Source of the DNA: a virus
Length of the DNA: 64,000 bases
IMG/VR virus record: IMGVR_UViG_3300045988_165922
Location: 37,893-101,892 of that record
Direction: 5' to 3' (one strand)
In this document: piece by piece, positions 19,006-57,002 of the stretch
Numbering within the stretch: the first letter of the stretch is position 1
Layout of the letters: each line of letters begins with the position of its first letter
Notes under the pieces: model-generated
What the model was told of the DNA's origin: nothing
Seen by the model: only the letters and a program-made list of their open reading frames with translations
Databases searched by the model: none
Program-made: the position numbers and the translations under genes

Positions 19006-20235
19006 TCACGGGTGAAAAGCCAGCTTCCGCATTTCACAATGCCTCCGATACCACGCTTTCTCCCGAGCGCACAGTCCACGACGGTGAGTTAGACCCGACA
19101 GTGTGCTCTCATGGCTCGTCCAAGAATCCTGAACTGTCCGCAATCCCACATGCACGCCATCATATGAGCGGATAAGGTTACGCGCATGCCGTCGGCTTGC
19201 ACGCAACGCCTTATGGTGCATGCGGATAAGAATACTGCCGTCATCCTGTACGCTGTATACGCGTTTCAGGAATGTGAGTTGACCGGTGCGACAGTCCACT
19301 ATGCGGGTCTTGCGCTTGTTCAACCGCAATCCCAATTGATTGACATGCCGCTCGTAACCGGCCAGCACACGTTCGGCCTGTTCACGATTCTTGCAGAAAC
19401 AGTAGGCATCATCCATATACCGTCCGTAGAATCCTTGCGACATGCACCAGTGGTCAACCTTGTTCAAATACCAGATAGCCATGGTTTGGCTTGTCTGATT
19501 GCCTAAACCCAAGTGAGGTTCGTCCAATACGAAGATTCTCAATACGGTTAGAATCCGTTCCACATCCTGCTTCTCCCGTCCGGTGCGGGCGATGCTCCGG
19601 TACAGGGTGGAAATCATATCGAACGCTCGTTGGGAGCTGATACTTCCGAAATAGTTGGCACAGTCGAAGATGACAGCATACGGATGCTCCCATTTGCCCA
19701 AAGCCCGCTTATAGTGTAGTTCGAACCGTTTTCGGGCGAACGATGTTCCACGTTTCGGTAGGCTTGCCGCATTATCGTATATCAGTTGGCTTTCCACGAT
19801 GGGGACGAGACTGTTGTCGCATAAGGCGCGTTGCACCACCCGGTCTCGGAAGGATACCGCGCTGATGTGGCGGAGTTTGCCTCGTTCGGAAATGTCGAAT
19901 CGGATTGGCGCTCTCTTCTTGTATGTGCCGTCCTCTAATTCTTGGGCGAGTTTCCAACAGTTGACGGCACGCCTATTGTCGAAGTTCAACACTGTGTTTT
20001 TCCATGTGACGCCGCGTTTGCATTTTCTTGCGGCTTGGTAGAGCGCGTCGAATCCGAATGTTTGTTGGAAGTCGATGTAACGGTGGAGCTTCCTGTACTT
20101 ATCATCCGAGCGTTGTTGCAGTCTGCGTTGGCGTCTTCTACGTCTTTGACTCGCATTCACGATTTTAATGCTTCCTTCACTAGGGAAAGAGAAAAGAATG
20201 GTTGAGGGCAGGTCGTCGGCAACAACCCAAGACAT
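19006..20235 (-). CDS. reverse transcriptase, DGR type
   Basis: RT motifs SFRDRVVQRAL, FDCANYFGSI, YMDDAYCF (YxDD); motif 4 reads LGNQTSQ (the DGR-type I/LGxxxSQ in place of QGxxxSP); adjacent TR/VR pair; N-terminal start uncertain. Confidence 0.85.
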   Translation of the reverse strand: MSWVVADDLPSTILFSFPSEGSIKIVNASQRRRRRQRRLQQRSDDKYRKLHRYIDFQQTFGFDALYQAARKCKRGVTWKNTVLNFDNRRAVNCWKLAQELEDGTYKKRAPIRFDISERGKLRHISAVSFRDRVVQRALCDNSLVPIVESQLIYDNAASLPKRGTSFARKRFELHYKRALGKWEHPYAVIFDCANYFGSISSQRAFDMISTLYRSIARTGREKQDVERILTVLRIFVLDEPHLGLGNQTSQTMAIWYLNKVDHWCMSQGFYGRYMDDAYCFCKNREQAERVLAGYERHVNQLGLRLNKRKTRIVDCRTGQLTFLKRVYSVQDDGSILIRMHHKALRASRRHARNLIRSYDGVHVGLRTVQDSWTSHESTLSGLTHRRGLCAREKAWYRRHCEMRKLAFHP

Positions 20236-22157: not shown

Positions 22158-25100
22158 TCACTGTTCTTCCTTCTTTCGTAGGAGGATGATTGCCGCGACG
22201 AGTCCGCTGATGCTGACGAGCATGAGGAGCGGCAACAGCAATCCCATGCCCGTGTGCGGCATGGTCGCCAACCATGTTTCAGGCAGGACACCCGCATCCA
22301 CATGCTCCTTGGTTGGAGCATCTTGGGTGAGGGTGATGGTCAGCTTGTTGGCTTCATCCGTGTAAGCATCCGAATCAGTGGAGCTTCCATCCGCCGCAGG
22401 AGTCTTGTCTCCCACATCCGGCGTGGTGAAGTCCCGGTGGTTCACTTTGGTGAATTGGATACGGTATTTGTTGCCGTTCGCGTCCAGACGTTCGAAAATG
22501 TACTTGCCATCCTTGTCGGTCTTGGTGGTTGCCAACTGTTTGCCGTTCTCGTCAGTCAGAATGACCGTCTGACCGGCGAAATGCGTGTTCTCACCTTCAT
22601 CTTGAATGCCGTTCTTGTTGGTATCCTCCCAATACAGGCCGCTGATGGAACCGAGTTTCTTCGCGGTGGTGGTTGGTGTGATGATGGTGCCGACTTGGTC
22701 GCAGGAGTCCTCATCGGACGTGCTGAACCAGTGTTGGCGTCCTTCCTCCGTATAGTCCGTGTCGGTGCGGCATGTCGGATTGCCGGTCACATCATTCGTG
22801 TTGGCATCCAGTTTCGTAGCGTCCGGAGTGTTCGGCTTGTTTTTGCCGCTTGCGTGTGGCGTGCCCGAATATGGCGTGTGTTCGGAGTCGAACCATGCTT
22901 GGTTGAGAATGGTCTTCGTATTCTTCTTAACCCACTCGTCAATGTACGTCTGGTCTTTGCCCGTCATGTCAGCGGTCTCACGGTCAACTGTGCCGGTGAA
23001 ATGGTAGATGACATAGCCGCCCGGCTCAATCGAATACGGCAGATTGTACGTGCGGGTAGTCAACCCATTCTCAGTGGTTTCGCTCGATGGTTCGACAGGT
23101 ACGGCGGTCGGGTCGGACGAGACCGCCATACCCTTCAAACCGATCGAACGCGCGCCACCCGTCTTACCGTCACCATACGGGTCGAAGCCCGCAATCATGA
23201 CCTGCTTGCCAAGAATGAGCACGTCACGGTCACCGCCCGCCACGTCGGAGGCGATGATGCCCGTATCGACTGGCGTGCCGATGATGTCCGTGTTGTTACC
23301 GGTGGAGTCGTCCGTCCAATACATGCCGTTGCCGGTCTTGCCGTTCGCCAATTGTCCGTCACCATTCCAGCCTGAAGCCCACAAGTGTTGGTTCTTGTCG
23401 ATGGCGTACAAGGTCTGATAGCCGCCGCTGATGAGTGTGATGTCCTTCAGACTGGACACGTTGGGCGAATAGCCGTCGCGGTTCAGGGTGGCTACCGGTT
23501 GGACGGTGCCCGAATTGGTCAACGCGTATACTTGACCGAATGCGGCGGCCACCTGCATATAGCCGCTTCCTTTTGGGGTTAATGCGGTCGAAGCGCCCGC
23601 ATACAGGCTTCCGCCGTTCTTGGTCAATGCGATGAACGAGTCCATGCTTGCGCTGACTTGCGTGGATGTGACGGAGCTAATCTGGGTCAGACTCGTGTAA
23701 GTCTTGTTGCCAATGTTTCCCGTGGCCCACAGGGTTCCGTCACTGGCGATGGCGACGGTGAACTGGTTGCCGCATGCCACGTCCGTGAACGTCTTATCCG
23801 AAGCGACTTCCGTCCATTCGAAACGATTGTCCGTATCACCCGTACCCAATTGGCCTCTACTATTCCAACCGGTCGTGTACAGGTGTCCGTCCGTGCTGAT
23901 GGCGGCGGAATGTTTGCCACCGGCGGCGACTTTCAGCCAACTACCGTTGATGATGGTCGGCTTGTTCACGTTCACCGGAGTACTCGTGTTCGTGGAGTCA
24001 GGCTTGAAACCCAATTGACCATACTGGTTATTACCCCACGCATACAACAAGCCCTCATTCGTCAACACAAACTTATGGTCGCCACTCGTCGCAACCTGCT
24101 TCGCACCACCGGATTCAATACTCACAGTACCCGCCGTAGCCGTCACATCATGCACATCAGCACTCATACGGTCAGACACGACACTGGAAGTATCAAAACG
24201 AGACGTGCCGGAAGACTCAGTGGAAGTATCAGGAACAACCTGAACACCAGACTTCCAAACATGACCGTCGGAAACCAAAATCGGCGTGCTCTGGTCAGTT
24301 CCCGTGCCATCATGGTTATATCCCCATGTCCACAGGCGTCCGCCTGAATCCAAAGCCAGTCTTCCCTCTATTTGCGTAATTGTGACATCAGATTTAACCT
24401 TAATAGGAACATTTACGCAGGTATTCTCATACCCAATTCCTAATGAGCCGTGCTCATTGTTTCCCCATGCCCACCGGTGGCCGTCCGAATCTAAAGCAAA
24501 CGAGGATGAATCCCTCGCCGCAATCTGCGTGAACATGTCAGTAGAATAAACTTTAATCAGTAGGGGTTTTAAGCTGTTTTTATTAGAAGATACTCCAAGT
24601 GAACCGTAGTTATTCCACCCCCATGCCCATAGGTGACCTTCCGAATCCAAGGCGAGTGAATGCGCGCCGCCTGCGCTGACTTGGGTGAAGGTGGTGTCCG
24701 GTTTGACCTCGATAGGAGTGTTCCGGGCGGTGGTTGTTCCGTCTCCCAACTGGCCGGAACCGTTGCCTCCCCATGCCCATAGGTGACCTTCCGAATCCAA
24801 GGCGAGTGAATGCGCGCCGCCTGCGCTGACTTGGGTGAAGGTGGTGTCCGGTTTGACCTCGATAGGAGTGTTCCGGGCGGTGGTTGTTCCGTCTCCCAAC
24901 TGGCCGGAACCGTTGCCTCCCCATGCCCATAGGTGACCTTCCGAATCCAAGGCGAGTGAATGCGCGCCGCCTGCGGCAAATGTCTTCAGTGGTGGTACAC
25001 TCGGTGCCTTCTCGGTGCTCTTGCCCTTATTCTGCACCTTCACATCCCAGTTGATGACGCATTTTGTGTCCGTGCAATTGGTGCCGGTGACGGTTTTGTC

Positions 25101-28100
25101 TACGGTGGCTTTCAGGTCTGGTTTCGCGTAACCGTAGTCCACGTGGGTCTGGTTGATGCCGATACCTAGGTGGATGTCGTCGGACGTGTCTGTCGCGTTG
25201 GACTTGATTTTGTTAGACCAGCTGCGCGTGTTCGTCACGTCTTCCAATTTGCCGTAGTAGGTTTTGACTTGGGTTTGCACGCCGTCGCCCGTACTGGTGC
25301 CCGTATTGCGTTTCACCGAAGTCTTGTACGTGCCGGAGTGGAGCAGGTCGAACTCGTAATACCCGTCCTTGTCGGTTTTCACTGTCTTGACGGACTGCCA
25401 AGCACCATTCGCATCCTGCTTGCTGAGGATGACTTCCACGCCTTCGATACGTTCCTCACCATCTCCGATGAGCGTGTTCTCATCCTTATCCCACCAGACG
25501 GTACCGGAAATGCTACCGACGACGACGTTCGCCACGTCAGGCCATGGCTGGTTGCCTGCTGGCTTGCCTGCCGTGTCGGAATAATAGTTGCGGCCCAACC
25601 ATAGCGTGTACTTGTCGTCTTTCACATTGTCGGACGGGTTGAGCGTGATGGTGCCGTTCACTGCGGAATAGGATAGTTTTTCGTCGGATGCGACGACTGT
25701 GCTGGTCAGTCGGATGGCGGTGATGTTCTTCTTGTCCGAATCCGTCAACTTGTCCCATGTCTTCCACTCGTAGTCAGCCGGATTATCCGACTTCTTTCCG
25801 GTGGTGGTTGAATAGTAGACGGTCGTACTGGTCGAATTGTCCATATTGACCGTGATGGGCTGGGTCAGTTCGTAGGAGCCATGATAGTTGCTGTATCCAC
25901 GCTCATATTCGACCAGCTTGTCCTGCACGTACTTCTCATCACCATTCGCAGGAAGCAGTAGCATGCTATCCATGGTGCCGGTGTGACCGCCGCCCTTGCC
26001 GTACACGTTGAACTCCCAAGTAAGCGGGTCACCGATTTCAGCCTTCGTGGTCTTCACACGCATGATGCCACTGTTGGTTTCCGCATTGGAGACGGGGAAT
26101 GGGACGCTGGGCGTATTGCTTTTGATGGTTTGGGCTTGCAATGCGCCGTTCTCGTCAACGTCCACGCTCATATTCGCACTGGCGGTCACAGTCCCGGTGG
26201 CGAGATTGGATACGATGCCACTGAAATGCAGGTCAGGCAAAGTGGCCGACCCCATACGGTCTACTTCCGGCGTGACTTTGCCAGAACGTGGCGTGAACAC
26301 GAGATTATTCCCGTCCACTTTCATCTGCCAGAACGAATCATCACAGGTCGGATTGTACAAGCCTTTCGGTTTCGGCACCGTGATGGTCGGCGTCATGCTT
26401 GTATTGGACAGGAGAATGGTGCGCAACTGTTCCGTGACCGTATAATCCACTCGCATGCCGGGAGTCAAATCGACTGCGCTTCCGGACGGGTGATTGGAAC
26501 TGTTGTTCGCATACACTTGATTGCCTTCACCATCGTAGGCTTTCAGACTGATGTCGATACTGGTGGTCGGGTCTACCGGCTTGGCAATCCACACCCAATT
26601 GGTGACGCTCGCCTTATCGTCTTCGGTAAGCCATGCGGTCAGCGTATCCAAAGCTTCCACATTGCCTTTGGACACGTCGGCTATGGCGAGCGTGTTGAAC
26701 GTGACCTGAACGTTCGGCGCACCCTTTCCTAAAGTCAACGTGTCGGGGTTGAACGTCACCCGAATCTTCTTGACGTTCGGAGCGTCCGTGTCGGATGGTT
26801 CCCCGTCATGCCAATTGTCTTTGCTATCAGCCCATTGAACTTTGTAGTCGGAAACCGGAGCACCGTTCTGGGTGACTTCCAAGCTTCCATCCCACCGCAT
26901 GCGCGTATTATCCCACTCATCCTGCATGGTCGGCGTAGTGTTTTTAAGCTTGTCCGCAGTAACGTTCGCCGCATACATTTCCAAAATGGTTTTGACTTGC
27001 GTTCCACGGGACACGGTGTCGCCGGAACCGTCGGAATAGTAATGGTAGATGTCGGCTTTGCCTTCGGCGGCGTCGAACGTCAGATTCTCCTTGTCGAACA
27101 TGGTCTTGGACGCAGTGTTAGGACGTTGCAGTCCTTTGCCGAACAGTGGAATCTTGCCAGCTGGAGTCGGCTTGAGCCGTTGGATGATGGCTCGTGACCA
27201 GTCATTGTTCGCGTACGGGTAGCCGACGCGGGCACCCGTATCCTTGTTGTAGGTGCTCTTGTCCCGTCCAATGTTCCAGCCGGGTTCGCCGCCCTTGCCC
27301 ATGTTCAACAGTGCGTTGCCGTTATCGTCTTTGACGCTGAACACGGTTTCGTCGGGAACAAGGTGGACATCGTAATATTTGACGTCTCCTTCTTTCATGT
27401 TTTTGAGCGCGTCGGTTCCGGCGGGAATCCTGTAGCTGATTGTCGCCGCCGTACCGTTTTTGCCACTGGATACGGTCAAATACTGTTCTTTATCACTGTT
27501 ACGGGTAATCCTCTGACCGCCTACAGTCCACACGGTGCCCTGCGGGAAGTCGGAAATATCCACTTTGGTAGTCCAATCGATGCTGGTGGACGCGCCCTTC
27601 GTGGACGAATAACCCGGATAGGTCAACGCGTCGGTACGAATAGTGAAATCACCGGTCGCATCGGTGTTCTGACTCCAATAAGTACGATGCTCATACGAGT
27701 ATTGGCCTTTCACCGGATTGCCGCCATTGTCAATGACCAAGTCAGCCGCCGGAGCGGATACTACAGTCAGCTCATCCGTACGATACGTGGTTGACGTTCC
27801 ACCTTCGCGGGCGACGACGATTTTCGGAATCTGACCCGGCTTGACCAAGCCTCCCGTGTCTTTTGCTTTCAGATAGAAGGTTTGGGTCATGGTTTCCACG
27901 CCACCGGCTGGAACCGTGTAGGAGCAGGAGCCGTCACTGTTTTTCTTCGCGGTGACGAGTTGTCCCGGCTGGCAGAAGCCACCACCGTCAGCAGTCTGCA
28001 AATACGGCGCGTCATCCAAGTCGAACTTCACGTTGATGGTACGCTTGCCCGCCGCGTTGAAGTTCAACGTGAGAGAATATTCGACCGTATCACCGGATGC

Positions 28101-28358
28101 GACCACGCCATCGGTAGGGGAATCATCGCCCGTGGCGAACCCGTTCTTCGAATTCACGAACGTTTGCGAACTCGTGCCATGCCCCGTACCGTCGGCTTTC
28201 TTAACGATTTTCGCAGTAGCATATGCGGGTTTCAACTCGTCCGCATGCGCTTTCGGAGAGGCTACCGGATTGGTCATGCATATCAGGCCGGATGACAGTG
28301 TGGCGATTGCGGCCAATAATGCTACCGGATGTGCCACATGCTTTTTGAGAATACCCAT
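22158..28358 (-). CDS. giant sortase-anchored surface protein / putative pilus tip adhesin with RCC1 beta-propeller repeats and CnaB-like domains, 2066 aa
   Basis: signal peptide; HSLALDSEGHLWAWGGNGSGQLGDGTT RCC1 repeats; CnaB-like GKYIFERL / GYYEFDLL; C-terminal MPHTG followed by TM and RKKEEQ sorting signal. Confidence 0.8.
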   Translation of the reverse strand: MGILKKHVAHPVALLAAIATLSSGLICMTNPVASPKAHADELKPAYATAKIVKKADGTGHGTSSQTFVNSKNGFATGDDSPTDGVVASGDTVEYSLTLNFNAAGKRTINVKFDLDDAPYLQTADGGGFCQPGQLVTAKKNSDGSCSYTVPAGGVETMTQTFYLKAKDTGGLVKPGQIPKIVVAREGGTSTTYRTDELTVVSAPAADLVIDNGGNPVKGQYSYEHRTYWSQNTDATGDFTIRTDALTYPGYSSTKGASTSIDWTTKVDISDFPQGTVWTVGGQRITRNSDKEQYLTVSSGKNGTAATISYRIPAGTDALKNMKEGDVKYYDVHLVPDETVFSVKDDNGNALLNMGKGGEPGWNIGRDKSTYNKDTGARVGYPYANNDWSRAIIQRLKPTPAGKIPLFGKGLQRPNTASKTMFDKENLTFDAAEGKADIYHYYSDGSGDTVSRGTQVKTILEMYAANVTADKLKNTTPTMQDEWDNTRMRWDGSLEVTQNGAPVSDYKVQWADSKDNWHDGEPSDTDAPNVKKIRVTFNPDTLTLGKGAPNVQVTFNTLAIADVSKGNVEALDTLTAWLTEDDKASVTNWVWIAKPVDPTTSIDISLKAYDGEGNQVYANNSSNHPSGSAVDLTPGMRVDYTVTEQLRTILLSNTSMTPTITVPKPKGLYNPTCDDSFWQMKVDGNNLVFTPRSGKVTPEVDRMGSATLPDLHFSGIVSNLATGTVTASANMSVDVDENGALQAQTIKSNTPSVPFPVSNAETNSGIMRVKTTKAEIGDPLTWEFNVYGKGGGHTGTMDSMLLLPANGDEKYVQDKLVEYERGYSNYHGSYELTQPITVNMDNSTSTTVYYSTTTGKKSDNPADYEWKTWDKLTDSDKKNITAIRLTSTVVASDEKLSYSAVNGTITLNPSDNVKDDKYTLWLGRNYYSDTAGKPAGNQPWPDVANVVVGSISGTVWWDKDENTLIGDGEERIEGVEVILSKQDANGAWQSVKTVKTDKDGYYEFDLLHSGTYKTSVKRNTGTSTGDGVQTQVKTYYGKLEDVTNTRSWSNKIKSNATDTSDDIHLGIGINQTHVDYGYAKPDLKATVDKTVTGTNCTDTKCVINWDVKVQNKGKSTEKAPSVPPLKTFAAGGAHSLALDSEGHLWAWGGNGSGQLGDGTTTARNTPIEVKPDTTFTQVSAGGAHSLALDSEGHLWAWGGNGSGQLGDGTTTARNTPIEVKPDTTFTQVSAGGAHSLALDSEGHLWAWGWNNYGSLGVSSNKNSLKPLLIKVYSTDMFTQIAARDSSSFALDSDGHRWAWGNNEHGSLGIGYENTCVNVPIKVKSDVTITQIEGRLALDSGGRLWTWGYNHDGTGTDQSTPILVSDGHVWKSGVQVVPDTSTESSGTSRFDTSSVVSDRMSADVHDVTATAGTVSIESGGAKQVATSGDHKFVLTNEGLLYAWGNNQYGQLGFKPDSTNTSTPVNVNKPTIINGSWLKVAAGGKHSAAISTDGHLYTTGWNSRGQLGTGDTDNRFEWTEVASDKTFTDVACGNQFTVAIASDGTLWATGNIGNKTYTSLTQISSVTSTQVSASMDSFIALTKNGGSLYAGASTALTPKGSGYMQVAAAFGQVYALTNSGTVQPVATLNRDGYSPNVSSLKDITLISGGYQTLYAIDKNQHLWASGWNGDGQLANGKTGNGMYWTDDSTGNNTDIIGTPVDTGIIASDVAGGDRDVLILGKQVMIAGFDPYGDGKTGGARSIGLKGMAVSSDPTAVPVEPSSETTENGLTTRTYNLPYSIEPGGYVIYHFTGTVDRETADMTGKDQTYIDEWVKKNTKTILNQAWFDSEHTPYSGTPHASGKNKPNTPDATKLDANTNDVTGNPTCRTDTDYTEEGRQHWFSTSDEDSCDQVGTIITPTTTAKKLGSISGLYWEDTNKNGIQDEGENTHFAGQTVILTDENGKQLATTKTDKDGKYIFERLDANGNKYRIQFTKVNHRDFTTPDVGDKTPAADGSSTDSDAYTDEANKLTITLTQDAPTKEHVDAGVLPETWLATMPHTGMGLLLPLLMLVSISGLVAAIILLRKKEEQ
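24600..24975. repeat. ~2.5 tandem, near-identical 150-bp DNA repeats, each encoding one 50-aa RCC1 blade
   Basis: copies start at about 24621, 24771 and 24921 and are essentially identical at the DNA level. Confidence 0.8.
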
Positions 28359-29263
28359 TAGTGTTCCTTCTTTGCGTGGTTTTTTCTACGGATGATGAGA
28401 ATGGTGATGATGATTACCGCAAGCCAGAAGCCGCCGACGTACAGTATGAGCCATTGGTTCGTGTGGTCTTTCGGCGCGTTTTCGGGTCTGGGTGCGGGGT
28501 GCGGCATGCTGGTGCGCGTGCCGGTCACTAGGAGTCGCTTGTTGTTGATGCCGTATGGCGTGCAGGTTAGGAGTGTGGCGAGGTCTTTTCCGGCGACGAT
28601 TTTCAGTTTGGTGAAATCGGATGGGTCTACCACATCAATGCTTGTGACCTTGTAGGCGAGCGTATGTCCGGCGGTTATCAGATAGAAGACGTCACTTTTT
28701 TTGGCTTCACTGCCGAAGCCTCGTAGCTTGTCGAACATGAGCTGGTCTGCCAAACCCGTGTGCGCGGATATGACAGTATGCGTGTTCTTGCCGCCGACGG
28801 GGAGACTGGAACCATATAAGTGTCCGGCTCCAGCGGCCAACACGTTTTGCGACGTGCCATGCCGGATGGGCAGGTTGATGCCCAAGCGTGGATATTTGAT
28901 GGTGGCCATGACCCCATCCTTGGGGGTGGATAGTTGCTTCCGATACGTGTTGTCCGTTTCGGACTTGTTGACGCCTGTCCAAGGGTCTTCCGCCTCACCA
29001 AGAATGGGCTGGCCTTCCTCGTATAGGCGTTGATTGTAGGCTTGCGCGTCCGCATACTCTTGGGCGATTCGTTTCACGTCAGTGTTTTCCACGGCTTGCG
29101 CGTGGGAGTCGGTCAACCGGTTGGATTGGCTGCTGTTCGAAATCATGAGAATGAATGGGATGGTTCCGGACAGGGCGGATAGGATTAGGCAGAGAAGTCC
29201 CGCTATGGCTCGATTTCCCAAGCCTTTCGGTTTCGCCGTATGTTTTCCCAAAACCCCTCCCAT
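28358..29263 (-). CDS. class C (pilus-specific) sortase
   Basis: TLLTCTPYG catalytic motif, conserved His and Arg, C-terminal TM; stop overlaps the adhesin ATG (TAATG). Confidence 0.8.
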   Translation of the reverse strand: MGGVLGKHTAKPKGLGNRAIAGLLCLILSALSGTIPFILMISNSSQSNRLTDSHAQAVENTDVKRIAQEYADAQAYNQRLYEEGQPILGEAEDPWTGVNKSETDNTYRKQLSTPKDGVMATIKYPRLGINLPIRHGTSQNVLAAGAGHLYGSSLPVGGKNTHTVISAHTGLADQLMFDKLRGFGSEAKKSDVFYLITAGHTLAYKVTSIDVVDPSDFTKLKIVAGKDLATLLTCTPYGINNKRLLVTGTRTSMPHPAPRPENAPKDHTNQWLILYVGGFWLAVIIITILIIRRKNHAKKEH

Positions 29264-29398
29264 GCGGTTATAAAGAATCTAAAAGGTGTCGTGTCGATAT
29301 TTGGGTTCCCGACACGACAAGCGGAACATTTCATGCTTTTCCAACCGTCAAACGGTCAGAAAAGTTTTCTCATACGGCAGTATTCCAATCTTCCAATC

Positions 29399-31093
29399 TC
29401 ACGCCTTGCGACGAAGCAGCAGGGCGGAAGCGCCAGCCAACAGGACGGTCATCACGCCGAAGATGGACAGCCAGACCGCACCGGTCTTCGGCATGTCAGC
29501 GATGTTGCGGGCGTTGATGACGGTCACACCCATCTTGTCAACGTTCTCGGAAGCCAGATTGTTGGCGTCCTTATCGAACTGGCTGAGCATGTAGGAGCCG
29601 TTCGACTGGTTCACCTTGATGGTCAGGGTGAACTGCGGCAGGATGGAGCCGTTGAACGGACTCTTTGTCTCCTTGACCGTGTACTTGCCGTCGAGGCCGG
29701 TCAGCGTGAGCACGCCATTGCTAGTAGCGACGCTGGTGACGGTGTCGGTGGTGCCGGTGCTCTCGGTCAGGTCGGCCTTGCGGTAGGTCAGGCCGTCGGA
29801 GGACTTGACGAACCTGACCGGGGTGGTGGTCTGGTCGCCCTCGTACACCTTGAACTCGGCTCCGGCGAGCGGAGCGTTGTTCGTGTCGTGCTTGGTGAGG
29901 GTGAACTTGCCGACGTACACCTTGTCGGTCTGGCCCGGGGTGGTCTCATGGTCGGTGACGGTGTTCGGATTATGCGAGTATTCGACCTCGTTGGTGTTGG
30001 CGTCGGCGGTTCCGGAGACGGCGTTCTTGTTCACGTACATGCCGTACTTGACGTCAACGGCGGCATCGACCGGGAACTTGGCTTTCATCGCCACAATGTC
30101 GGATGTGGTGGTGGAGTCACCGGTGGTCGGAGCGAAGATGATGTGGAACTTGCCATCCTCAGTAGTGACCTTGTAATCGGTGTCGCAGATGAGGGTCTTA
30201 CCGTCCACGGTCACGACCATGTTGTCCTTGGCCGCGTCATAAGTCAGGCCCTTGGAATACGTATCGTTGATGGCGTAATAGTACTTGTCGTAGCCAGTCC
30301 AGTTCGGCACTTTGCTGGTCATTTCGAAGCTGACCTTCTTGCCGATAGCGGTTTCGGCGGTCGCGCCACTGTTTTCGACGGTGCCGTTTTCGGCGGCGGT
30401 AATCTTCTTCGTGACGGTGGTGCCGTGTACCTTATAGTCCACGGTGCCCAGCGTGTAGGTCTTGGCGCCGTTCTTCAACGTGGTCTTGCCATCGATGCCG
30501 GTGCCGTTGAACATGACGATGGACGCCTGACCGGTCTTGGTGGTGTCCACGACCGCGTACACGCCCGGACGGACAGAAGCGGTCATATGCTTGGCGTCGG
30601 TGCCCTTGGCGAACGCGGTGCCCTTGTCGCCGATGACAGCGGCCTCGTTCTTCAACTGGTCGATGAAGTCACGAAGCTTGCCAGCCCACGGACTGTTCTC
30701 GGAATCAAGGAGATTCTGCACGACCCACACCATCGGATTGGACGCATTATAGTCGTATCCGGCAGTCTGGTCTTTCTTGGACTTAGTGTCAATACTGGCT
30801 TTAGTCAATGCGTCAGCAATAGCAGAAGCCTTGCCCGCGTCAATCAGGTCAAAGCCGGTAATATTAGTACCATCAGTCTGCGCATACGAATAGTAGGCGA
30901 GCGGCACAGCCTTCAACGTGCGATTGCTAATATCACCATTAGCAGCGACGGTCAACGTCTGACGAGCAGCCGCATCAAACTTGGATGCGTCAACACGAGT
31001 ATCAGCCGCCATGGCGGAGCCGACTCCAGCCAAACCCATGGCACCGGCCACAAGCGTGGCGACCGTTGCCTTCAACAGGTTTTTGGTTTTCAC
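29399..31093 (-). CDS. sortase-dependent pilin backbone subunit, 564 aa
   Basis: signal peptide; E-box-like YTVKETKSPFNGS; C-terminal MPKTG + TM + RRKA; GTG start with RBS AAGGAAAG. Confidence 0.7.
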   Translation of the reverse strand: MKTKNLLKATVATLVAGAMGLAGVGSAMAADTRVDASKFDAAARQTLTVAANGDISNRTLKAVPLAYYSYAQTDGTNITGFDLIDAGKASAIADALTKASIDTKSKKDQTAGYDYNASNPMVWVVQNLLDSENSPWAGKLRDFIDQLKNEAAVIGDKGTAFAKGTDAKHMTASVRPGVYAVVDTTKTGQASIVMFNGTGIDGKTTLKNGAKTYTLGTVDYKVHGTTVTKKITAAENGTVENSGATAETAIGKKVSFEMTSKVPNWTGYDKYYYAINDTYSKGLTYDAAKDNMVVTVDGKTLICDTDYKVTTEDGKFHIIFAPTTGDSTTTSDIVAMKAKFPVDAAVDVKYGMYVNKNAVSGTADANTNEVEYSHNPNTVTDHETTPGQTDKVYVGKFTLTKHDTNNAPLAGAEFKVYEGDQTTTPVRFVKSSDGLTYRKADLTESTGTTDTVTSVATSNGVLTLTGLDGKYTVKETKSPFNGSILPQFTLTIKVNQSNGSYMLSQFDKDANNLASENVDKMGVTVINARNIADMPKTGAVWLSIFGVMTVLLAGASALLLRRKA

Positions 31094-32723: not shown

Positions 32724-34064
32724 TCAGAACTCGTTTTCGAAACCTGCGGCCATGTCCGCGAATTTGGAGCATTCGCCCATGAACGCGAGATTGAACGTTT
32801 CGGTAGGCCCGTTACGGTGCTTGGCGAGAATCACGTCGGCTTCGCCCGGACGTTCCTCACGGTCGTAGTATTCGGGACGATGCACGAGGAACACCATGTC
32901 GGCGTCCTGTTCGATGGAACCGGACTCTCTCAGGTCGGACAGTTCCGGCTTCTTGTCGGCACGCTGTTCCGCATTACGGTTCAACTGGGAGAGCACGACC
33001 ACGGGGCATTGCAGTTCCTTGGCGAGCATTTTGCATTGGCGGGAGAAGTTCGACACTTCCTGCTGACGGTTCTCGACGGTTTTACCGGAGGACATGAGTT
33101 GCAGGTAGTCGATGACGATAAGCTTCAACCCGTTGACCTTGCGGCTGAGAGCACGGCATTTCGCACGGATGGTGCTCATGTTGATGATGGCGGAATCATC
33201 AACCCACAATGGTGCCTTCTCGACCTGATGGCAGAGCGCGTTGAGTTTGTTCCAATCATTCGAGTTCAGATTCTCGGGATGTTGGAACGATGCGAGACGG
33301 ATGCCTGTTTCGGCTGCGAACATGCGTTGCATGAGTTCGTGACCGCCCATTTCCAGACTGAAAATCACAGTCGGCAGACCCTTGTGCAGTGCGGCGTTAC
33401 GCGCGAAATCCATGCCGAGAGTACTCTTGCCCATGCCCGGACGGCCCGCGACTATGACCATTTGTCCGGCTTGCAATCCGTGCGTCAACGCGTCGATGTC
33501 ACGGAAGCCGGTGGGTGTTCCGAACTCGTTCGGATTCTGTGACATTTCATCCAACTGTTGGAGTATTTCGTCGGACAGGCGGTATGCGGTCTTCAACTCG
33601 TCGTCTTCGGAACGGCTTGAATCCTCCAACGAGAACGCGGCCTCCAACGATTTGCTGAGCACATCTTCGGCTGACGCGTCGGATACGTTGCTCATCTGTT
33701 GCAACTGCTGTCCGACCATGTTGATGTGGCGGAGGATGGCCGCGTCACGAATCTGCTTGATGAAATAGTCACTGTTGTTCGACGTGGGCGCGGAGCCGAC
33801 AAGCTGGGCGATGTAGTCGATGCCGCCGACCTGTTCCAACTGTCCGTTGTCCATCATGTGCGAGGACAGCATTTGCGCGTCCACACGGTTATTGTCTGCG
33901 GCCAGTTCCTTTATATTATAGAAGATGGTCTGGTTGGTCGGCTGGTAGAAGTCCTCTTCGGAAAGTTGGCTGATGACCTTGTCCAACGTTTCCGCGTCTT
34001 GAAGCATGGCCCCCAACAATACTTGCTCGGCCATGTCCTTGTGGATTGGTGTGGGGACGCTCAC
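32724..34064 (-). CDS. dnaB: replicative DNA helicase DnaB
   Basis: N-terminal DnaB domain (LLGAMLQD), Walker A GRPGMGKST, RecA-like C-terminal domain; 446 aa. Confidence 0.85.
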   Translation of the reverse strand: MSVPTPIHKDMAEQVLLGAMLQDAETLDKVISQLSEEDFYQPTNQTIFYNIKELAADNNRVDAQMLSSHMMDNGQLEQVGGIDYIAQLVGSAPTSNNSDYFIKQIRDAAILRHINMVGQQLQQMSNVSDASAEDVLSKSLEAAFSLEDSSRSEDDELKTAYRLSDEILQQLDEMSQNPNEFGTPTGFRDIDALTHGLQAGQMVIVAGRPGMGKSTLGMDFARNAALHKGLPTVIFSLEMGGHELMQRMFAAETGIRLASFQHPENLNSNDWNKLNALCHQVEKAPLWVDDSAIINMSTIRAKCRALSRKVNGLKLIVIDYLQLMSSGKTVENRQQEVSNFSRQCKMLAKELQCPVVVLSQLNRNAEQRADKKPELSDLRESGSIEQDADMVFLVHRPEYYDREERPGEADVILAKHRNGPTETFNLAFMGECSKFADMAAGFENEF

Positions 34065-42862: not shown

Positions 42863-44077
42863 ATGACCCATCAGGAGGCGGTCTTATTGGAAAAACGAAC
42901 GATTTCCCTGATAATCGGCTCCGGAGGGCTTCTCACAACCATCAAAAAGGCCCTTACGAGAGCCGGAAACATGCGTTGGCAGGTGCCCGCCGCAGACAAT
43001 ATTCAAGCACAGGCCGACTATCTGATAAGACATCCGGTGCCCTCCGGGTTCAAAGGAATCATCTTCACCGACAGGGCTGGAAACTGGCTTCCGATAGCCA
43101 ACGCCGGATACATGGTCTACTGGTGCAACACCGGTCAGATACCGGTCGGAGCCATGGGCATGAGCGAACAGATGTTACGCATGAGCGTGGCTGATTTCGC
43201 ACGGACTTATTGGGGAATCCAGCTTGCGGACAAGCGTCTCGTAGTCGATATCCTCCAAAACAAAGTGAAGGAGACTGCGGTTCTCCTACCCATCACATCC
43301 AACACCGGAGGAGTGGGGAAGACCACGTCCAGCCGACAGTTGGCAGACCGTGCGTCGCAAGCCGGATTGCGTGTTCTACTCATCGACGGGAACATCAGAC
43401 AGTCCAGCCAACGTAGTTTTTTCGACCCGAGACAGGACAAGCCATTGCATACGATAGCCGACTGGCGACCGGGCATGCAGGTGCAGGTCGGAGCCAATCG
43501 AGGACGTGACCTTGGGGTTCCATACGACATCTGTTTCGCACCTCCAGCAGGCGTCGGAGTGGACTGGCAGATATACCGTCAGTACATCCAAGCGGCACGC
43601 CGACTGTGGGATTTCGTCGTGCTCGACCTTGACCGAATCAGCGCGGACGATTTGGATGATAGGGAGAATATCGCCAACGGTTTACTGCTTCCATACATTC
43701 AATCGGGAGACCCTTGTCTGGTTATCGTCAAGGCTGGAAGGCAGACGCAGATAGACGCGTTGAATCTGCTGACGGCCTTGGCTGAGCATCATCTTCCGAA
43801 GGAACTCATCGGCATCAAGGACACTGTTCCGGTCGGACTGCAAGGTTACAGACGGCTCGACTATACGAGATATGGGACGTTTCTCGGAACCGAATATCAG
43901 ACGGTCGAGGCAAGCAACCATATCGCCAACGGTGATGTCAGATGGGATGACCCCGGTCTTGCTTTTGCTAGGGAGAACATTCTTAACTGGGCTTTGCCCG
44001 ACCGTGGTTTCAATCCGGAAAGATTCAATCCGAACGCTAAGAATAGTGAAGGAAAGAAAGGTCGTGGGCGTAAGTGA
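42863..44077 (+). CDS. ParA/MinD-family ATPase with a ~140-aa N-terminal extension (CpaE/VirC1-like architecture), 404 aa
   Basis: deviant Walker A ITSNTGGVGKTT in mid-protein; Walker B-like VVLDLD. Confidence 0.65.
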   Translation: MTHQEAVLLEKRTISLIIGSGGLLTTIKKALTRAGNMRWQVPAADNIQAQADYLIRHPVPSGFKGIIFTDRAGNWLPIANAGYMVYWCNTGQIPVGAMGMSEQMLRMSVADFARTYWGIQLADKRLVVDILQNKVKETAVLLPITSNTGGVGKTTSSRQLADRASQAGLRVLLIDGNIRQSSQRSFFDPRQDKPLHTIADWRPGMQVQVGANRGRDLGVPYDICFAPPAGVGVDWQIYRQYIQAARRLWDFVVLDLDRISADDLDDRENIANGLLLPYIQSGDPCLVIVKAGRQTQIDALNLLTALAEHHLPKELIGIKDTVPVGLQGYRRLDYTRYGTFLGTEYQTVEASNHIANGDVRWDDPGLAFARENILNWALPDRGFNPERFNPNAKNSEGKKGRGRK

Positions 44078-45270
44078 CATTCGATGACCGTTTTCTTTTC
44101 GACCCGAACGACGAGAATCTTTGGAAGACCGGAAGCATTGCCGACTGGTATAAAGGCAACGACATGTTCGAGATGGAGCATCCCGGATTGTTCGCGCAGA
44201 CCCACCCGTGGTTCGTTGCGAACAAACTGTTCGCGGAGACAATGGTGAAAGCGAACAGCGAACTCGTTTCGAGTATCCTCGGAGCATTGTTCACTTGGAA
44301 GACATGCACGGTTGACCAACTGCGTGCGGGACTTTCCATCAAAGGCGCTCCCGCTTTCGAGCGTGACGAACCGAACCTGTATGGTGCGATGAACCGTTTA
44401 GGAATCATCAACGTCGGTTTCAGTCAGGCGGAACGATTGTACGGTCAGACCGTGAATCATGTTTGGCTTTCACCGTCGAACAGTCCACGTCTTATCAACC
44501 GTGCGATGAAATTGTACGGGATGGAAAAGTGGATGCGTGAGACGATGGCGGTTTCCTATTACGCGGGGAATCGTTTCCATGTTCGGCATAACACTTATGC
44601 GGCGCACGCGGGATTGATGTTGGCACGCGATTCACGTGTGAAATTTTCATCCGGTGATGGTTGGGGGAAATTCCGTAGCGTTGACCCACAGGCTGTTGCC
44701 GAATCGAAAGTCGGCAAGGCTTGCGCTACCGATGTGGTGACGTTGTGCCGGAACAATGTGTTGGCGGGTATCGAAATCCAAACGTCGAACAGCGAATTGG
44801 ATAAGAAGATGCAGAACTGGGCGAAGATGCTCGCCTACTCTCCGATGAAACGTCGCGGACTCATCTGCGTATGGTTGCAGATACCGAAGGCGAACGAAGG
44901 TTACGAATCGTTCAATGCGGTGATACAACGCACGCAAGGCATGACGGAAATGGTCGTGGGCAATCCGACCGTGTCGCAACGAATGGGAGTCGCGGTTTGG
45001 GATGAATGGTTCGAGCATGGAATTCCAACCGACAGGTTCGGTGAATATACGGACATGAGTGGAACACGGCGCAACATTTTCTCCGACGAGTGGGTGCAAT
45101 ACACTCCGCAAGTTCGTGACGTTCGCAAAGTCAGCGAATGGGGTTGGGACGTGACGTGGGACATCATCAAAAAGGATTGGGGTTGGGACGTTTCCGGTTG
45201 GACGATGCCGGAAGCGTACCGTGGCGGTTTCTACGGTTTCATTGGAAAGGATTGCGATGGTCTCCACTGA
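44074..45270 (+). CDS. hypothetical protein, 398 aa
   Basis: ORF track; overlaps the upstream stop (GTGA). Confidence 0.55.
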   Translation: MTFDDRFLFDPNDENLWKTGSIADWYKGNDMFEMEHPGLFAQTHPWFVANKLFAETMVKANSELVSSILGALFTWKTCTVDQLRAGLSIKGAPAFERDEPNLYGAMNRLGIINVGFSQAERLYGQTVNHVWLSPSNSPRLINRAMKLYGMEKWMRETMAVSYYAGNRFHVRHNTYAAHAGLMLARDSRVKFSSGDGWGKFRSVDPQAVAESKVGKACATDVVTLCRNNVLAGIEIQTSNSELDKKMQNWAKMLAYSPMKRRGLICVWLQIPKANEGYESFNAVIQRTQGMTEMVVGNPTVSQRMGVAVWDEWFEHGIPTDRFGEYTDMSGTRRNIFSDEWVQYTPQVRDVRKVSEWGWDVTWDIIKKDWGWDVSGWTMPEAYRGGFYGFIGKDCDGLH

Positions 45271-53553: not shown

Positions 53554-53907
53554 ATGGAAGAGGTAGGAAACCAAGCCGCTGACACTGCGGGACGAACGTT
53601 GGGTGACGTGCTCACCGTGTTCTTCTCTTGGGTGTTCACGCCGACGGGCGCAATCCTCACTTTGTTGATGATTATTATTTGCGCCGGTAGTGTCGTGTTC
53701 GCAATCTTGCAGAAAAGCACCCGCGCGTTGATGACCGCGTTGACCATCTGCGCGTTCCTGTTGTTCGTGTGGATTATCACCGGTGTCTTGGAGGTCATGG
53801 GTTTGCCCGTGCGTGAATGGATGAAGGATATCGCGGCCCAGATGCCTGATATCGGTTCACTGTTCATGGAGTTCCTTCGCAAACTGGTGTTCACAGCCAC
53901 CGAATGA
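53554..53907 (+). CDS. small 3-TM membrane protein, 117 aa
   Basis: ORF track; RBS AAGGAG. Confidence 0.45.
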   Translation: MEEVGNQAADTAGRTLGDVLTVFFSWVFTPTGAILTLLMIIICAGSVVFAILQKSTRALMTALTICAFLLFVWIITGVLEVMGLPVREWMKDIAAQMPDIGSLFMEFLRKLVFTATE

Positions 53908-54142
53908 TTTTTGTTCGGCTATAAAAACGAAAGAAGGCCGTATCCGTTTCATCGCGGACGCGGCTTTCTGTTTTTCTGTTCCGCCTGTAAACCTGTACGC
54001 CGTTCCACTGTTTTACTGGAATGTTTCTCCGAACGGTTTTCTGGTTCGGCGTGCCGACTTTTCGCCGTTGTTATCATCGAAACAAAAACATACCCCCACC
54101 ATGATTCCGTCCACACCGGAAGCAGAAAAAGGAAACCAGAAC

Positions 54143-54805
54143 ATGAGAGTCAAAAACCATACGGTCATCATCACCGTCGCAATCATCAAAGGCGGTTCAG
54201 GAAAAACAACCACATCAATGGCATTGGCCGAACTATTGCACAAACGCGGGGAACAAGTCACAGTCTTGGACTCCGACAACACGGGCGGCGCGACCATGTG
54301 GGAAATGTACGTCGAACAGGAAAACCGCAGACGTAGACAGGACAATCCGGACGCGAAACCATACACGCTCGGCTTCCCCGTCGTGCAAACCAACGAAGCC
54401 GTATTGAACAATCCGGAACTCATCCGCGAAAAATATTCAGGCTGGGTCATCATCGACACCCCACCGTCCGACGCCGGAGTGGTGCAGGCGGCGATAAACG
54501 CGGGCGACGTGGTGATAATCCCATGCCAGCCATCCGTATCCGATTTGACCCACGCGGGACGCACATACGCGGCGGCACGCAACGGCATCGTCCTGTTGAC
54601 ACGCGTGAAGCCGAGAACGAAACTCGCCCGGAACAGCATCAGCGAACTGGATGAGGAAGGCATCGCACGGTTCGAAACCGTCATCACGGAACGTGAAGCC
54701 GTCAAGAACATGTACGGCACGACGGAAATCGACAACAAGGAGTATTCCAGCGTCGTGCAGGAACTCATCGACTATCTGTCTGAAATCAATCTGGTGGAAG
54801 AATAA
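54143..54805 (+). CDS. parA: ParA partition ATPase
   Basis: deviant Walker A KGGSGKTT; ~220 aa; RBS AAAAAGGAAACC. Confidence 0.8.
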   Translation: MRVKNHTVIITVAIIKGGSGKTTTSMALAELLHKRGEQVTVLDSDNTGGATMWEMYVEQENRRRRQDNPDAKPYTLGFPVVQTNEAVLNNPELIREKYSGWVIIDTPPSDAGVVQAAINAGDVVIIPCQPSVSDLTHAGRTYAAARNGIVLLTRVKPRTKLARNSISELDEEGIARFETVITEREAVKNMYGTTEIDNKEYSSVVQELIDYLSEINLVEE

Positions 54806-54835
54806 AAACAGGAGCAGGGGAGTAAGTAGGCAATC

Positions 54836-55291
54836 ATGGTCAAGAACATCAAACGCAACGCTTTCGCAACCGGAATGCAGGACAAGCGTGACATGCGCCC
54901 ATTGGAATCACCGGAAAACATTAGCGAACCGAACACGGAGCAGGAACCGACACAGGCCGTTCCTGAAACGCGGGAACCGTCAGACCAGTCAGTCCAAACG
55001 TCCGCCGACATGCATGCCCAAACGCTCACGGAGGAAGAAGCCGACCGTCGGGCACGGCTCATCACCGACATAACCCATCCTGAAACACCGGCACCATCCG
55101 AAACGCATCAGCCGCCGAAAGAGAAAAGAATCGGCAGCAACGTCACCGTCGAAAACTGGCGTGCGTGGAAGATGAGAAGCATCGAATACGGGACGAAGCA
55201 GGCTGTATTGTTGAATGCCGCGATGGATTACTGCTTCCAGCAGGGGCACTTCGACCAGTCGCTCATCGACAAGTATGAGCAGAAGGATTAG
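54836..55291 (+). CDS. putative partition partner protein (ParB/ParG-like), 151 aa
   Basis: position directly after parA; Pro/Glu/Thr-rich N-terminus with a structured C-terminus; RBS GGGGAG. Confidence 0.4.
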   Translation: MVKNIKRNAFATGMQDKRDMRPLESPENISEPNTEQEPTQAVPETREPSDQSVQTSADMHAQTLTEEEADRRARLITDITHPETPAPSETHQPPKEKRIGSNVTVENWRAWKMRSIEYGTKQAVLLNAAMDYCFQQGHFDQSLIDKYEQKD

Positions 55292-55315
55292 GCTCCGGTA
55301 TACTAATTTTCGGAT

Positions 55316-55342
55316 GAACAAAAAGACTTCATCGAAGTCTTC
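55316..55342. terminator. bidirectional hairpin terminator (aagacttc atc gaagtctt; T-run on the minus strand)
   Basis: between the convergent genes 54836..55291 (+) and rep (-). Confidence 0.5.
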
Positions 55343-55399
55343 CAGATGGGGCGGCACTCACAACAGAGCGTACGTCCCATTGGTTTTTCTAAAACACAT

Positions 55400-56269
55400 T
55401 CAGGATACGAACGGGTTCATCGGCTCTTCATCATCTGCCCCACCCGCGTCCGTGTCGGCATCATCGTTACCCGACTGGATGGAAGGGAGACTGGGGCGGA
55501 CTATGACGCCGGTTTCCGTGATTTCGACTTTCAATTCCGGCCATGCGAGCTGAATCTTCTCCAACGCTCTTCTGAACTTGCGTCTGAATTCACGCATCGG
55601 ATACCCGTCATACTTGAACTGCATCAACAGAGCTTCCCATGTTACGCGGGTTTCACGTCGGGCACCGTTCGCGCGGAACGCGAGCCACTGGTAGATGTCC
55701 AAGGCGAGGGCGTCACTGCGAAGCCGACGGACGATGTACGGGTTGAGTGGCACGCAGTTCTCGGTCAGCAGCGCCCACATCTGGGGAGAGAATTCTATGA
55801 ACGACTTCTTGTTTTCGTCGGTCCCGTAGTTGAGCGCCACGGTGTTGGCGACAAAGAACGAGTGGGCTATGAATCCGTCTGCTGACCAGTTTTGGAGGAT
55901 GATGGAAGTGGTGGCTAGGTTCTTAACCATTTTCATCACATTATTCTTGTTCGACCCGGAATATTTGATTCCGACGCTATTGCAGAACGAGTTATACGTG
56001 TCGTCCAAGTAGACGGTATGATGCTCCACGTCCACGCAGTCGCTCCCGTTCTTGATAAGAGAGCGAATGTGGAGGAGGAACATTCTGGGGGCCGCACCAT
56101 AAGCCCATTCCCCGTTGGAGGCTGAGACGGTGATTGACGAGTTCCCGTTCGTCTTCCTAACGGATGGCGAGTCCGGTTTCGACTGTGGCAGGAAGCTCAG
56201 CTTTGACATCACGGACGGGGCGTAGCGGTATGCGTTTGACTTGTCGAGGTCTTTGCTATCATAGGTCAT
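55400..56269 (-). CDS. plasmid replication initiator (Rep) candidate, 289 aa
   Basis: located directly below the iteron array and AT-rich DUE; RBS AAGGAACTGTGGTCAC. Confidence 0.55.
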   Translation of the reverse strand: MTYDSKDLDKSNAYRYAPSVMSKLSFLPQSKPDSPSVRKTNGNSSITVSASNGEWAYGAAPRMFLLHIRSLIKNGSDCVDVEHHTVYLDDTYNSFCNSVGIKYSGSNKNNVMKMVKNLATTSIILQNWSADGFIAHSFFVANTVALNYGTDENKKSFIEFSPQMWALLTENCVPLNPYIVRRLRSDALALDIYQWLAFRANGARRETRVTWEALLMQFKYDGYPMREFRRKFRRALEKIQLAWPELKVEITETGVIVRPSLPSIQSGNDDADTDAGGADDEEPMNPFVS

Positions 56270-56448
56270 GTGACCACAGTTCCTTAAGGTTGATGGTTGC
56301 CGTTACCCCGGCTGGTTCCGCAGCGCGGGGTTTTCTTTTCTCTGATTCTAGTTAGAACTTTCGACCTCTCCACTGTTGCAGTCAACCTCTTCGGGCACGC
56401 GTGAGAAGGTGCCGCTATAGGTGGGTTATTCTGGCACGCCCTGCATAA

Positions 56449-56582
56449 AAAGTTGGAACTTTCGACACGGAAAGTTGGAACTTCTGACACGCTAAGTGGG
56501 CACTTCTGACACGGAAGTTGGAACTTTCGACACGGAAAGTTGGAACTTCTGACACGGAAAGTTGGAACTTCTGACACGCTTT
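56449..56582. repeat. iteron array: ~6 direct repeats of a 21-22 bp unit (aaagttggaacttctgacacgg)
   Basis: tandem direct repeats visible in the sequence; one degenerate unit (ctaagtgggcacttctgacacgg). Confidence 0.8.
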
Positions 56583-56619
56583 CGACCTGAAACGCCTACT
56601 CCCATAAGGGATTTCGACA

Positions 56620-56760
56620 CCTGCAAAAGGTATACAAAAGATTACAAAATATTAATAACCCTTGTATTCCCTTCTTTTTTCAAAAAACAAGTTTTTTTAA
56701 AAAGAAGCAAAAAATCAAAAACAGAATAAACCCATTTTTTAGATTTCATGTTTTGAAGAG
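56620..56760. other. AT-rich DNA-unwinding-element-like region of the putative oriV
   Basis: ~75% A+T with A/T runs, immediately beside the iterons. Confidence 0.5.
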
Positions 56761-57002
56761 ATTGAACCCTGCTTAAAGGTCATCCTCAATGCTTTTTTCG
56801 CTTCCCTGATTCGAACGTTTGAACAGGTCTAATCCTTTTGTGGAAGAGAGAAAAAAGAAAAGTTCCGGAAAAAGAAAAACAGAGAAGCCAGCACCACCGG
56901 TGGATGCATGCTGAAAACCCCGAAGCCGATATAGGAAACCTCGGACGGAAGGTAGACTTGAAGACAGTGCATGACAAACGGAAATGAATTCGGAGCGGAA
57001 CT

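Follow-up and report, generated by a model that had tools for sequence, protein, structure and literature searches.

Anatomy of the rep–iteron module

We analysed a 64-kb stretch of DNA (positions 37,893 to 101,892 of IMG/VR virus record IMGVR_UViG_3300045988_165922; hereafter the window) and in it a module at 54143-56760, where a gene for a putative replication protein (Rep) and an array of direct repeats (iterons) lie beside a pair of partition genes. An initial annotation had described here parA, a partner gene, a terminator, rep, six iterons and an AT-rich unwinding element, and had taken the whole for the theta-type origin of a plasmid or integrated plasmid. The module comprises the following features, in window coordinates:

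54143-54805, plus strand: parA, encoding a small (220 aa) Walker-type ParA partition ATPase (Pfam AAA_31, CbiA and MipZ cutoffs passed)
54836-55291, plus strand: gene for the partner, a presumed centromere-binding partition protein of 151 aa, directly downstream of parA
55323-55341: perfect 8-bp hairpin (arms AAGACTTC and GAAGTCTT) between the convergent partner and rep genes, at the left boundary of a variable cassette
55400-56269, minus strand: rep, encoding a putative iteron-binding protein of 289 aa from the RepA_C family (Pfam PF04796)
56345-56372, minus strand: promoter-like site for rep (hexamers TGGAGA and TAGAAT; the 16-nt spacer contains one iteron copy, 56350-56365)
56449-56578, plus strand: array of six direct 22-bp iterons (Tandem Repeats Finder; repeat-core count against shuffles)
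56595-56654, plus strand: conserved junction, the motif CCTACTCCCATAAGGG followed by the three 10-bp repeats TGCAAAAGGTA / TACAAAAGAT / TACAAAATAT (Tandem Repeats Finder; cross-allele identity)
56624-56760: AT-rich block, candidate DNA-unwinding element (G+C content 0.22-0.30 over about 140 bp)

Tandem Repeats Finder returned 6.0 copies of the 22-bp unit AAAGTTGGAACTTCTGACACGG at 56449-56578, with 86% matches and a start-to-start spacing of 22, 22, 21, 22 and 22 bp. With up to three mismatches allowed, the 20-mer iteron core occurs six times in the whole window, always inside the array; shuffled sequences gave an expectation of 0.01, and none of 100 shuffles reached six. The third repeat of the array (56494-56513, AAGTGGGCACTTCTGACACG) bears the half-site GTGGGCAC, which is typical of Rep alleles 79–83% identical to that of the window (locus L058), and suggests either recombination between arrays or relaxed specificity. 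Beyond the array, G+C content per 100-bp window falls to 0.29, 0.22 and 0.30 across 56600-56799, in surroundings of about 0.5–0.6. The AT-rich block holds an A/T palindrome at 56671-56707 and, at 56624-56654, the three copies of the 10-bp unit. Direct repeats in phase beside rep, adjoined by an AT-rich region with short repeats of its own, give the locus the layout of an iteron replicon.

The rep start codon (ATG) lies 181 bp from the nearest repeat of the array, and the gene reads away from it, towards the parA/partner pair. The promoter-like site 56345-56372 would be the rep promoter, and the sequence in its spacer (AGTTAGAACTTTCGAC), a variant of the iteron at 15 of 16 positions and the seventh copy at the locus, would be an operator for autorepression. 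It is the only promoter-like site on the rep strand, and a single match is within chance, as shuffles predict 2.2. The repeats, the AT-rich block and all three genes of the initial annotation were recovered. Its terminator is borne out in part: the perfect hairpin is present at 55323-55341, but the consensus terminator scan made no call there. No Rfam family, group II intron RNA included, reached threshold anywhere in the window.

Membership of an initiator family, which had been proposed as a check, was borne out for Rep: it scores 41.6 bits against Pfam RepA_C (PF04796; cutoff 26, E = 2.1e-10, residues 57-201), and the domain is present in every homologue that we found. An AlphaFold model built from 35 homologues (mean predicted local distance difference test score, pLDDT, 77; predicted template modelling score, pTM, 0.77) was compared with known structures using Foldseek. 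The best matches were domains 2-3 of RctB (E = 5e-8) and RepE54 (E = 3e-6), with a probability of 1.00 and template modelling scores of 0.45–0.64. Rep is accordingly modelled with the tandem winged-helix fold of the iteron initiators RctB and RepE. Fold comparison alone was informative, as the Rep alignment profile gave no meaningful match to Protein Data Bank sequences. At NCBI, relatives with 89–90% identity carry the name RepA and come from B. pseudocatenulatum and B. adolescentis, and the RepA_C family also provides the annotated RepA of a 4.3-kb plasmid. A tblastn search found no second RepA_C gene inside the window.

ParA scores 107 bits against NCBIfam ParA_partition, under the equivalog cutoff of 180. 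Its partner matches no Pfam family even at E = 10, and a single-sequence model shows about 100 disordered N-terminal residues followed by three C-terminal helices at low confidence (pLDDT 64); given the missing Pfam match and this weak model, we do not claim a ribbon-helix-helix fold. Position and synteny suggest a DNA-binding role in partition. Type Ib cassettes, exemplified by ParF/ParG of TP228, combine a small ParA with a small centromere-binding protein. The pair described here resembles them in having a 220-aa ParA that lacks an N-terminal DNA-binding extension and a small partner with a predicted long disordered N-terminus. Upstream of parA (53905-54142), weak repeats at a spacing of about 65 bp and a stretch conserved with a relative whose Rep is 61% identical, containing the inverted repeat CGGCG-N13-CGCCG, mark a candidate par operator or centromere. 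Elsewhere in the window (42863-45270, plus strand), a second, larger ParA-like ATPase of 404 aa is followed by a 398-aa partner; these genes are collinear with the 'CobQ' and hypothetical genes of the megaplasmid pMP7017 (57% and 51% identity) and may serve segregation as a second system or form an ATPase pair coupled to conjugation.

Two Rep–iteron systems on a Bifidobacterium megaplasmid

The exact Rep protein is found on many human-gut metagenome contigs of 212–232 kb, and one contig (ERZ28621602 scaffold_3, 217,486 bp) shares 18.6 kb with the window at 100% identity. We assign the window to a Bifidobacterium megaplasmid of about 217–232 kb from the adolescentis/pseudocatenulatum group. It belongs to a family of roughly 205–232 kb in adult-type bifidobacteria, with proteins named at NCBI as B. 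adolescentis, B. pseudocatenulatum or 'MULTISPECIES Bifidobacterium'. The family is very common in human-gut metagenomes: the index lists the exact ParA in 1945 blocks, and 1546 blocks contain the RepB-type protein P0123. A megablast search of PLSDB with 54000-57000 gave no match, and the database holds no close relative of this plasmid family. The searchable literature yielded no description of a megaplasmid from B. adolescentis or B. pseudocatenulatum.

In PLSDB, the closest entries are megaplasmids of the pMP7017 type from B. breve and B. longum. Among these, the conjugative pMP7017 of Bifidobacterium breve JCM 7017 has been studied experimentally (Dineen et al. 2021, PMC8313286). The window backbone follows that of pMP7017 collinearly between 49.8 and 36.3 kb, through eight consecutive genes at 31–62% identity. 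These include an 886-aa ATPase, a protein of about 1300 aa, a 117-aa protein, ParA (62%, at 41.1-41.8 kb in pMP7017), its partner (31%, the gene downstream of pMP7017 parA), a 426-aa protein (52%) and a GmrSD-type nuclease (51%). This synteny, together with the large contigs, bears out the proposed plasmid nature of the element, and the occurrence of both RepA-type and RepB-type genes on single contigs identifies it as a megaplasmid of the pMP7017 type.

Two RepA_C proteins, RepA and RepB, are carried by pMP7017 (PMC8313286). RepB is the initiator, both sufficient and indispensable; irregular 20-mer iterons lie downstream of its gene, and the GC skew switches at repB. RepA binds cooperatively to the region upstream of its gene, which holds eight direct repeats, a palindrome and an AT-rich region, and it is autoregulated. 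In B. breve, a 1.8-kb fragment with repA was unable to replicate; disruption of repA was tolerated, and Dineen et al. suggested that RepA is a relic (PMC8313286).

The window Rep is clearly of the RepA type, as its similarity to RepA (34.5% identity, 149 bits) exceeds that to RepB (24%, 74 bits). The two RepA-type loci share the RepA_C protein, a repeat core (rep-sense GTGTCAGAAGTTCCAA in the window, homologous GTGTCARAATTCTAA in the A-repeats of pMP7017), a repeat spacing of about 21–22 bp and the orientation of the repeats relative to rep. Distal to the repeats, both have an AT-rich region, three short phased repeats and a motif of the type CCTACTGCC..AAGGG. Each has a repeat at the promoter, and the predicted 5' leader of about 70 nt here compares with a mapped leader of 71 nt in pMP7017. 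They differ in position, pMP7017 repA lying at 96 kb beside an FtsK-like gene and the window rep in a slot adjacent to the par genes. The eight pMP7017 repeats form two clusters overlapping the promoter, as against six contiguous repeats and one putative operator copy here, and pMP7017 RepA has about 75 extra C-terminal residues.

Homologues of the validated initiator RepB, at 56–57% identity, are abundant on gut contigs of 205–232 kb. Downstream of them lie at least 13 irregular 20-mers, for example CGTGGCCTTTCGGACACC and CATGGACTATCAAACACC, that match the pMP7017 consensus TGGmCTATC. Four contigs carry both types of locus:

ERZ28656190 scaffold_29, 231,996 bp: exact window Rep at 185,368-186,237; RepB-type gene at 54,891-55,946
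ERZ28635201 scaffold_10, 215,193 bp: exact window ParA at 209.2 kb; RepB-type gene at 87.2 kb
ERZ28615651 scaffold_210, 152,866 bp: 90% Rep allele; RepB-type gene present
ERZ15609937 NODE_43, 202,302 bp: 61% Rep allele at 45.5 kb; RepB-type gene at 150 kb

On the three contigs of 202–232 kb, the two Rep loci are 93–130 kb apart, in opposite halves of the molecule. The contigs listed for P0085, P0124, P0123 and P0006 differ from those with the window Rep and show no co-residence with the window allele; co-residence was settled through P0026/P0084, the exact ParA and P0125. The window module is the second of two Rep–iteron systems on the megaplasmid, the RepB-type locus lying outside the window at a distance of 100–130 kb.

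The RepB-type locus of these plasmids shares with the RepA-type module its protein family and iteron logic. It differs in that its repeats are irregular, in both orientations and downstream of the gene, and in that it is highly conserved and not hypervariable (the two commonest RepB-type alleles are 99% identical). Its G+C minimum is about 42%, compared with 22% in the AT-rich block of the window. Type II CRISPR-Cas genes (Cas9, Cas1, Cas2) flank the RepB-type replicon on one side, and homologues of SecE and SecG on the other (loci L014-L023, about 5–6 kb upstream of the RepB-type gene; L021 1-872). SecE and SecG are near repB in pMP7017 too, but its type I-E CRISPR system is elsewhere.

Exchange of the rep cassette

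Comparison with sister plasmids located the variation precisely. The parA, partner and 426-aa genes are 98–100% identical between plasmids, rep is 83–94% identical, and the promoter and repeats are only about 50% identical. The boundaries of the variable segment, at about 55.3 and 56.9 kb, delimit a sharply bounded 1.6-kb cassette, and synonymous divergence (dS) rises from 0.02 in the adjoining partner gene to 0.44 in rep. Plasmids with identical ParA bear Rep alleles that are 100, 83, 79, 65 or 47% identical to the window Rep. The equivalent backbone slot of pMP7017 consists of 92 bp only, with no cassette.

The repeats change along with the protein. The 61% relative has five or six copies of GGTTCCACTTCTTCCCACTTTT at a 22-bp period, with period, copy number and AT-rich side unchanged; the repeats of the 79% allele read AAAGTGGGCACTTTCGACACG, and those of the 47% allele AGTGTGGACTTTTCCCACCAA, at a 21-bp period. 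By contrast, the junction at 56595-56654 retains 75–95% identity across Rep alleles of 47–79% protein identity and is partly recognisable upstream of pMP7017 repA. The AT-rich block is 87–90% conserved across alleles on the same backbone, and in every allele that we compared an AT-rich region with short repeats adjoins the iterons. The 47% allele is the most instructive, since its rep is inverted and its repeats lie downstream of the gene, still abutting the same junction (motif CCTACTGCC..AAGGG, 10-mers and AT-rich block). Because the inverted allele keeps its repeats at the junction, the comparison argues that the constant feature is the placement of the repeats beside the unwinding core, as an origin needs, and not their placement beside the promoter.

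Rep has a ratio of nonsynonymous to synonymous substitution (dN/dS) of 0.10–0.12, comparable to that of neighbouring genes, and its 289-aa reading frame is intact on hundreds of contigs. These two observations argue that the Rep–iteron module is under selection and not decaying. Two things appear to be new relative to the searchable literature, namely that a slot at a constant place beside parA holds a hypervariable, invertible cassette, and the very widespread megaplasmid family that bears it. The locus itself belongs to a known family of iteron replicons and is homologous to one already described.

Single relic copies of the repeats of two other alleles, in opposite orientation, are present downstream of the inverted 313-aa rep allele (locus L055, 5376-5410): GGTTCCACTTCTTCCGACTTT, of the type found in L044, and CTGTGTCGAAAGTTCCAATT, of the window type. 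Cassette exchanges in the past may have left them behind. Transposable elements of the IS200/IS605 family (TnpA/TnpB) are inserted at differing points around the cassette slot, plasmid by plasmid (L002 6508-7707; L003/L004 2009-3644; L059 4882-6205; window about 52.3-53.4 kb). One apparent natural variant without rep (L059) was dropped, as an IS605-family element and an ImmA-like open reading frame follow the partner gene there, and locus and contig end before the point at which a rep might come. The membrane protein of about 1300 aa encoded upstream varies between 1269 and 1343 aa through a repetitive Pro/Thr-rich segment.

Several other genes of the window were noted. A replicative DnaB helicase is plasmid-borne (32724-34064, minus strand; DnaB_C E = 2.6e-97, 53% identical to pMP7017 dnaB) and could be a factor needed in trans by a second origin. 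A 409-aa reverse transcriptase is encoded at 19006-20235 on the minus strand (RVT_1, E = 7e-13). At 22158-31093, also on the minus strand, a surface protein of 2066 aa that combines RCC1-type repeats and SdrD B-like domains adjoins a pilin of the sortase type (GramPos_pilinBB, SpaA), and a similar adhesin/pilus cluster occurs in pMP7017.

Possible roles of the module

Our preferred interpretation, to which we give a probability of about 0.55, is that the locus is an auxiliary Rep–iteron module, which would repress itself, exert allele-specific control of copy number and incompatibility by handcuffing, and possibly act as a conditional second origin. Ordinary vegetative replication is most likely run by the RepB-type origin. 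Rep would bind the six repeats through its two winged-helix domains; as 22 bp is about two turns of the helix, the bound Rep molecules would all lie on the same face of the DNA. Binding to the single copy in its own promoter would lead to self-repression, and repeat-bound Rep may pair sister plasmids (handcuffing), with allele-specific copy control and incompatibility as the outcome. Such incompatibility would explain why cassettes are swapped between otherwise identical backbones. The conserved 10-mers and AT-rich core may allow the site to open as a conditional second origin, perhaps with plasmid-encoded or host-specific factors.

Autorepression and handcuffing are the established model for classical iteron replicons. 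With F RepE/ori2, R6K pi, pPS10 RepA and Vibrio cholerae RctB, the module shares a tandem winged-helix fold (predicted for Rep) and phased direct repeats by an AT-rich region. It differs from them in that sequence similarity to the window Rep is undetectable and that no DnaA-box cluster was found at the locus. The Rep/oriV system of the island SGI1, also of the RepA_C family, needs a helper plasmid in order to fire, causes incompatibility (PMC7433901), and provides a precedent for a conditional RepA_C replicon. SGI1 Rep (S003) and oriV resemble the window module in combining a RepA_C initiator, direct repeats and AT-rich regions. SGI1 differs in being a gammaproteobacterial integrative island that has a DnaA box and whose rep is followed by four GC-rich repeats of 17 bp, and its repeats have no evident sequence similarity to those of the window.

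Several observations weigh against the preferred interpretation. The nearest tested relative of Rep, pMP7017 RepA, is neither sufficient nor necessary for replication, so that origin firing may never happen. No cluster of DnaA boxes was detected: the single one-mismatch site in 850 bp corresponds to the window background of 0.84 per kb. DnaA boxes are not present in every iteron plasmid. Contigs with an identical Rep protein have between 3 and 6 iteron copies, a spread to which assembly collapse may contribute. The AT-rich core may be alike among alleles on the same backbone partly because these diverged recently and not through selection, or because it serves as a promoter of the downstream 426-aa gene. 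Finally, the cumulative G-C curve of the window is flat to 28 kb, rises to 52 kb, forms a plateau at 52-58 kb and then falls slightly; the plateau at the locus resembles a terminus rather than the minimum of an origin, although this evidence is weak, with 7 kb of the window to the right of the locus. As a control, the cumulative G-C minimum of pMP7017 falls at 119 kb, at its validated origin, with a plateau or maximum at about 26-56 kb. The same measure was too noisy for use on 13-kb RepB-type loci.

We consider it unlikely that the locus is the main, self-sufficient theta-type vegetative origin (oriV) of the element, as the initial annotation had proposed. What stands of that proposal is the anatomy, since the layout is the full canonical one (rep, six phased iterons, an AT-rich block with short repeats and an adjoining parA operon), Rep is modelled with an initiator fold, and the AT-rich block is far more pronounced than at the RepB-type locus. 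However, the homologous RepA locus of pMP7017 was found neither sufficient nor necessary for replication, a conserved homologue of the validated RepB replicon resides on the same contigs, the cassette is absent from the equivalent pMP7017 slot, and no skew minimum coincides with the locus, even though this measure recovers the pMP7017 origin. The element thus probably has its replicon elsewhere. Genes diverge at about 38.5 kb, and we considered an alternative origin in the window there, but nothing supports it. Another possibility, that Rep is the remnant of a former replicon, a DNA-binding protein that represses itself and plays no present part in replication or copy control, follows the suggestion made for pMP7017 RepA, which is dispensable, autoregulated and binds its own promoter region; the iteron copy in the promoter-like spacer of the window rep would fit such a protein. 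We find it improbable all the same: the low dN/dS, like that of neighbouring genes, and the frame kept intact on hundreds of contigs do not suggest decay, the architecture persists even as the repeats and Rep change in step, and a precise exchange of cassettes would not be expected of a relic. Moreover, the repeats of the inverted allele are downstream of rep and cannot be its operator, yet they stay by the AT-rich core.

The complex of Rep and repeats might alternatively serve no origin at all, and act as a partition or pairing site for ParA, or as a fork barrier at a terminus opposite the RepB-type origin. The cassette is directly beside parA and its partner, the two Rep loci occupy opposite halves of the 202–232-kb contigs, and the window skew has a plateau or maximum at the locus. 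In pMP7017, the backbone position equivalent to the cassette is about 2–3 kb from a skew switch at 37.4 kb that has been read as the terminus (PMC8313286). Against these points, the skew evidence is weak, the RepA_C literature that we searched offered no precedent, pMP7017 keeps the par operon with no cassette in the slot, and the candidate par operator lies upstream of parA instead. We regard this explanation as very unlikely, and retain that of an auxiliary control module with a possible conditional second origin.

A more specific form of the auxiliary-module interpretation, which we put forward tentatively and hold to be less likely than not, is that the par-adjacent slot houses an exchangeable 'compatibility cassette'. 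Its origin would fire only conditionally (in a new host species, on conjugative entry or with the plasmid DnaB), and rapid replacement of its alleles, including the inversion of rep about an unwinding core that stays fixed, would let sibling megaplasmids in the gut coexist or exclude one another. If true, this would give a function to the conserved but dispensable RepA of pMP7017.

Only one bifidobacterial megaplasmid replicon, RepB of pMP7017, has been characterised, and genetic tools for bifidobacteria are few. Our results recast the puzzling second replicase of the pMP7017 family as what appears to be a maintained and repeatedly exchanged cassette, and not a decaying relic. The allele series, with Rep proteins of 47–100% identity, matching repeats and a constant core, would suit the study of Rep–iteron specificity and the development of compatible low-copy vectors for adult-type bifidobacteria.

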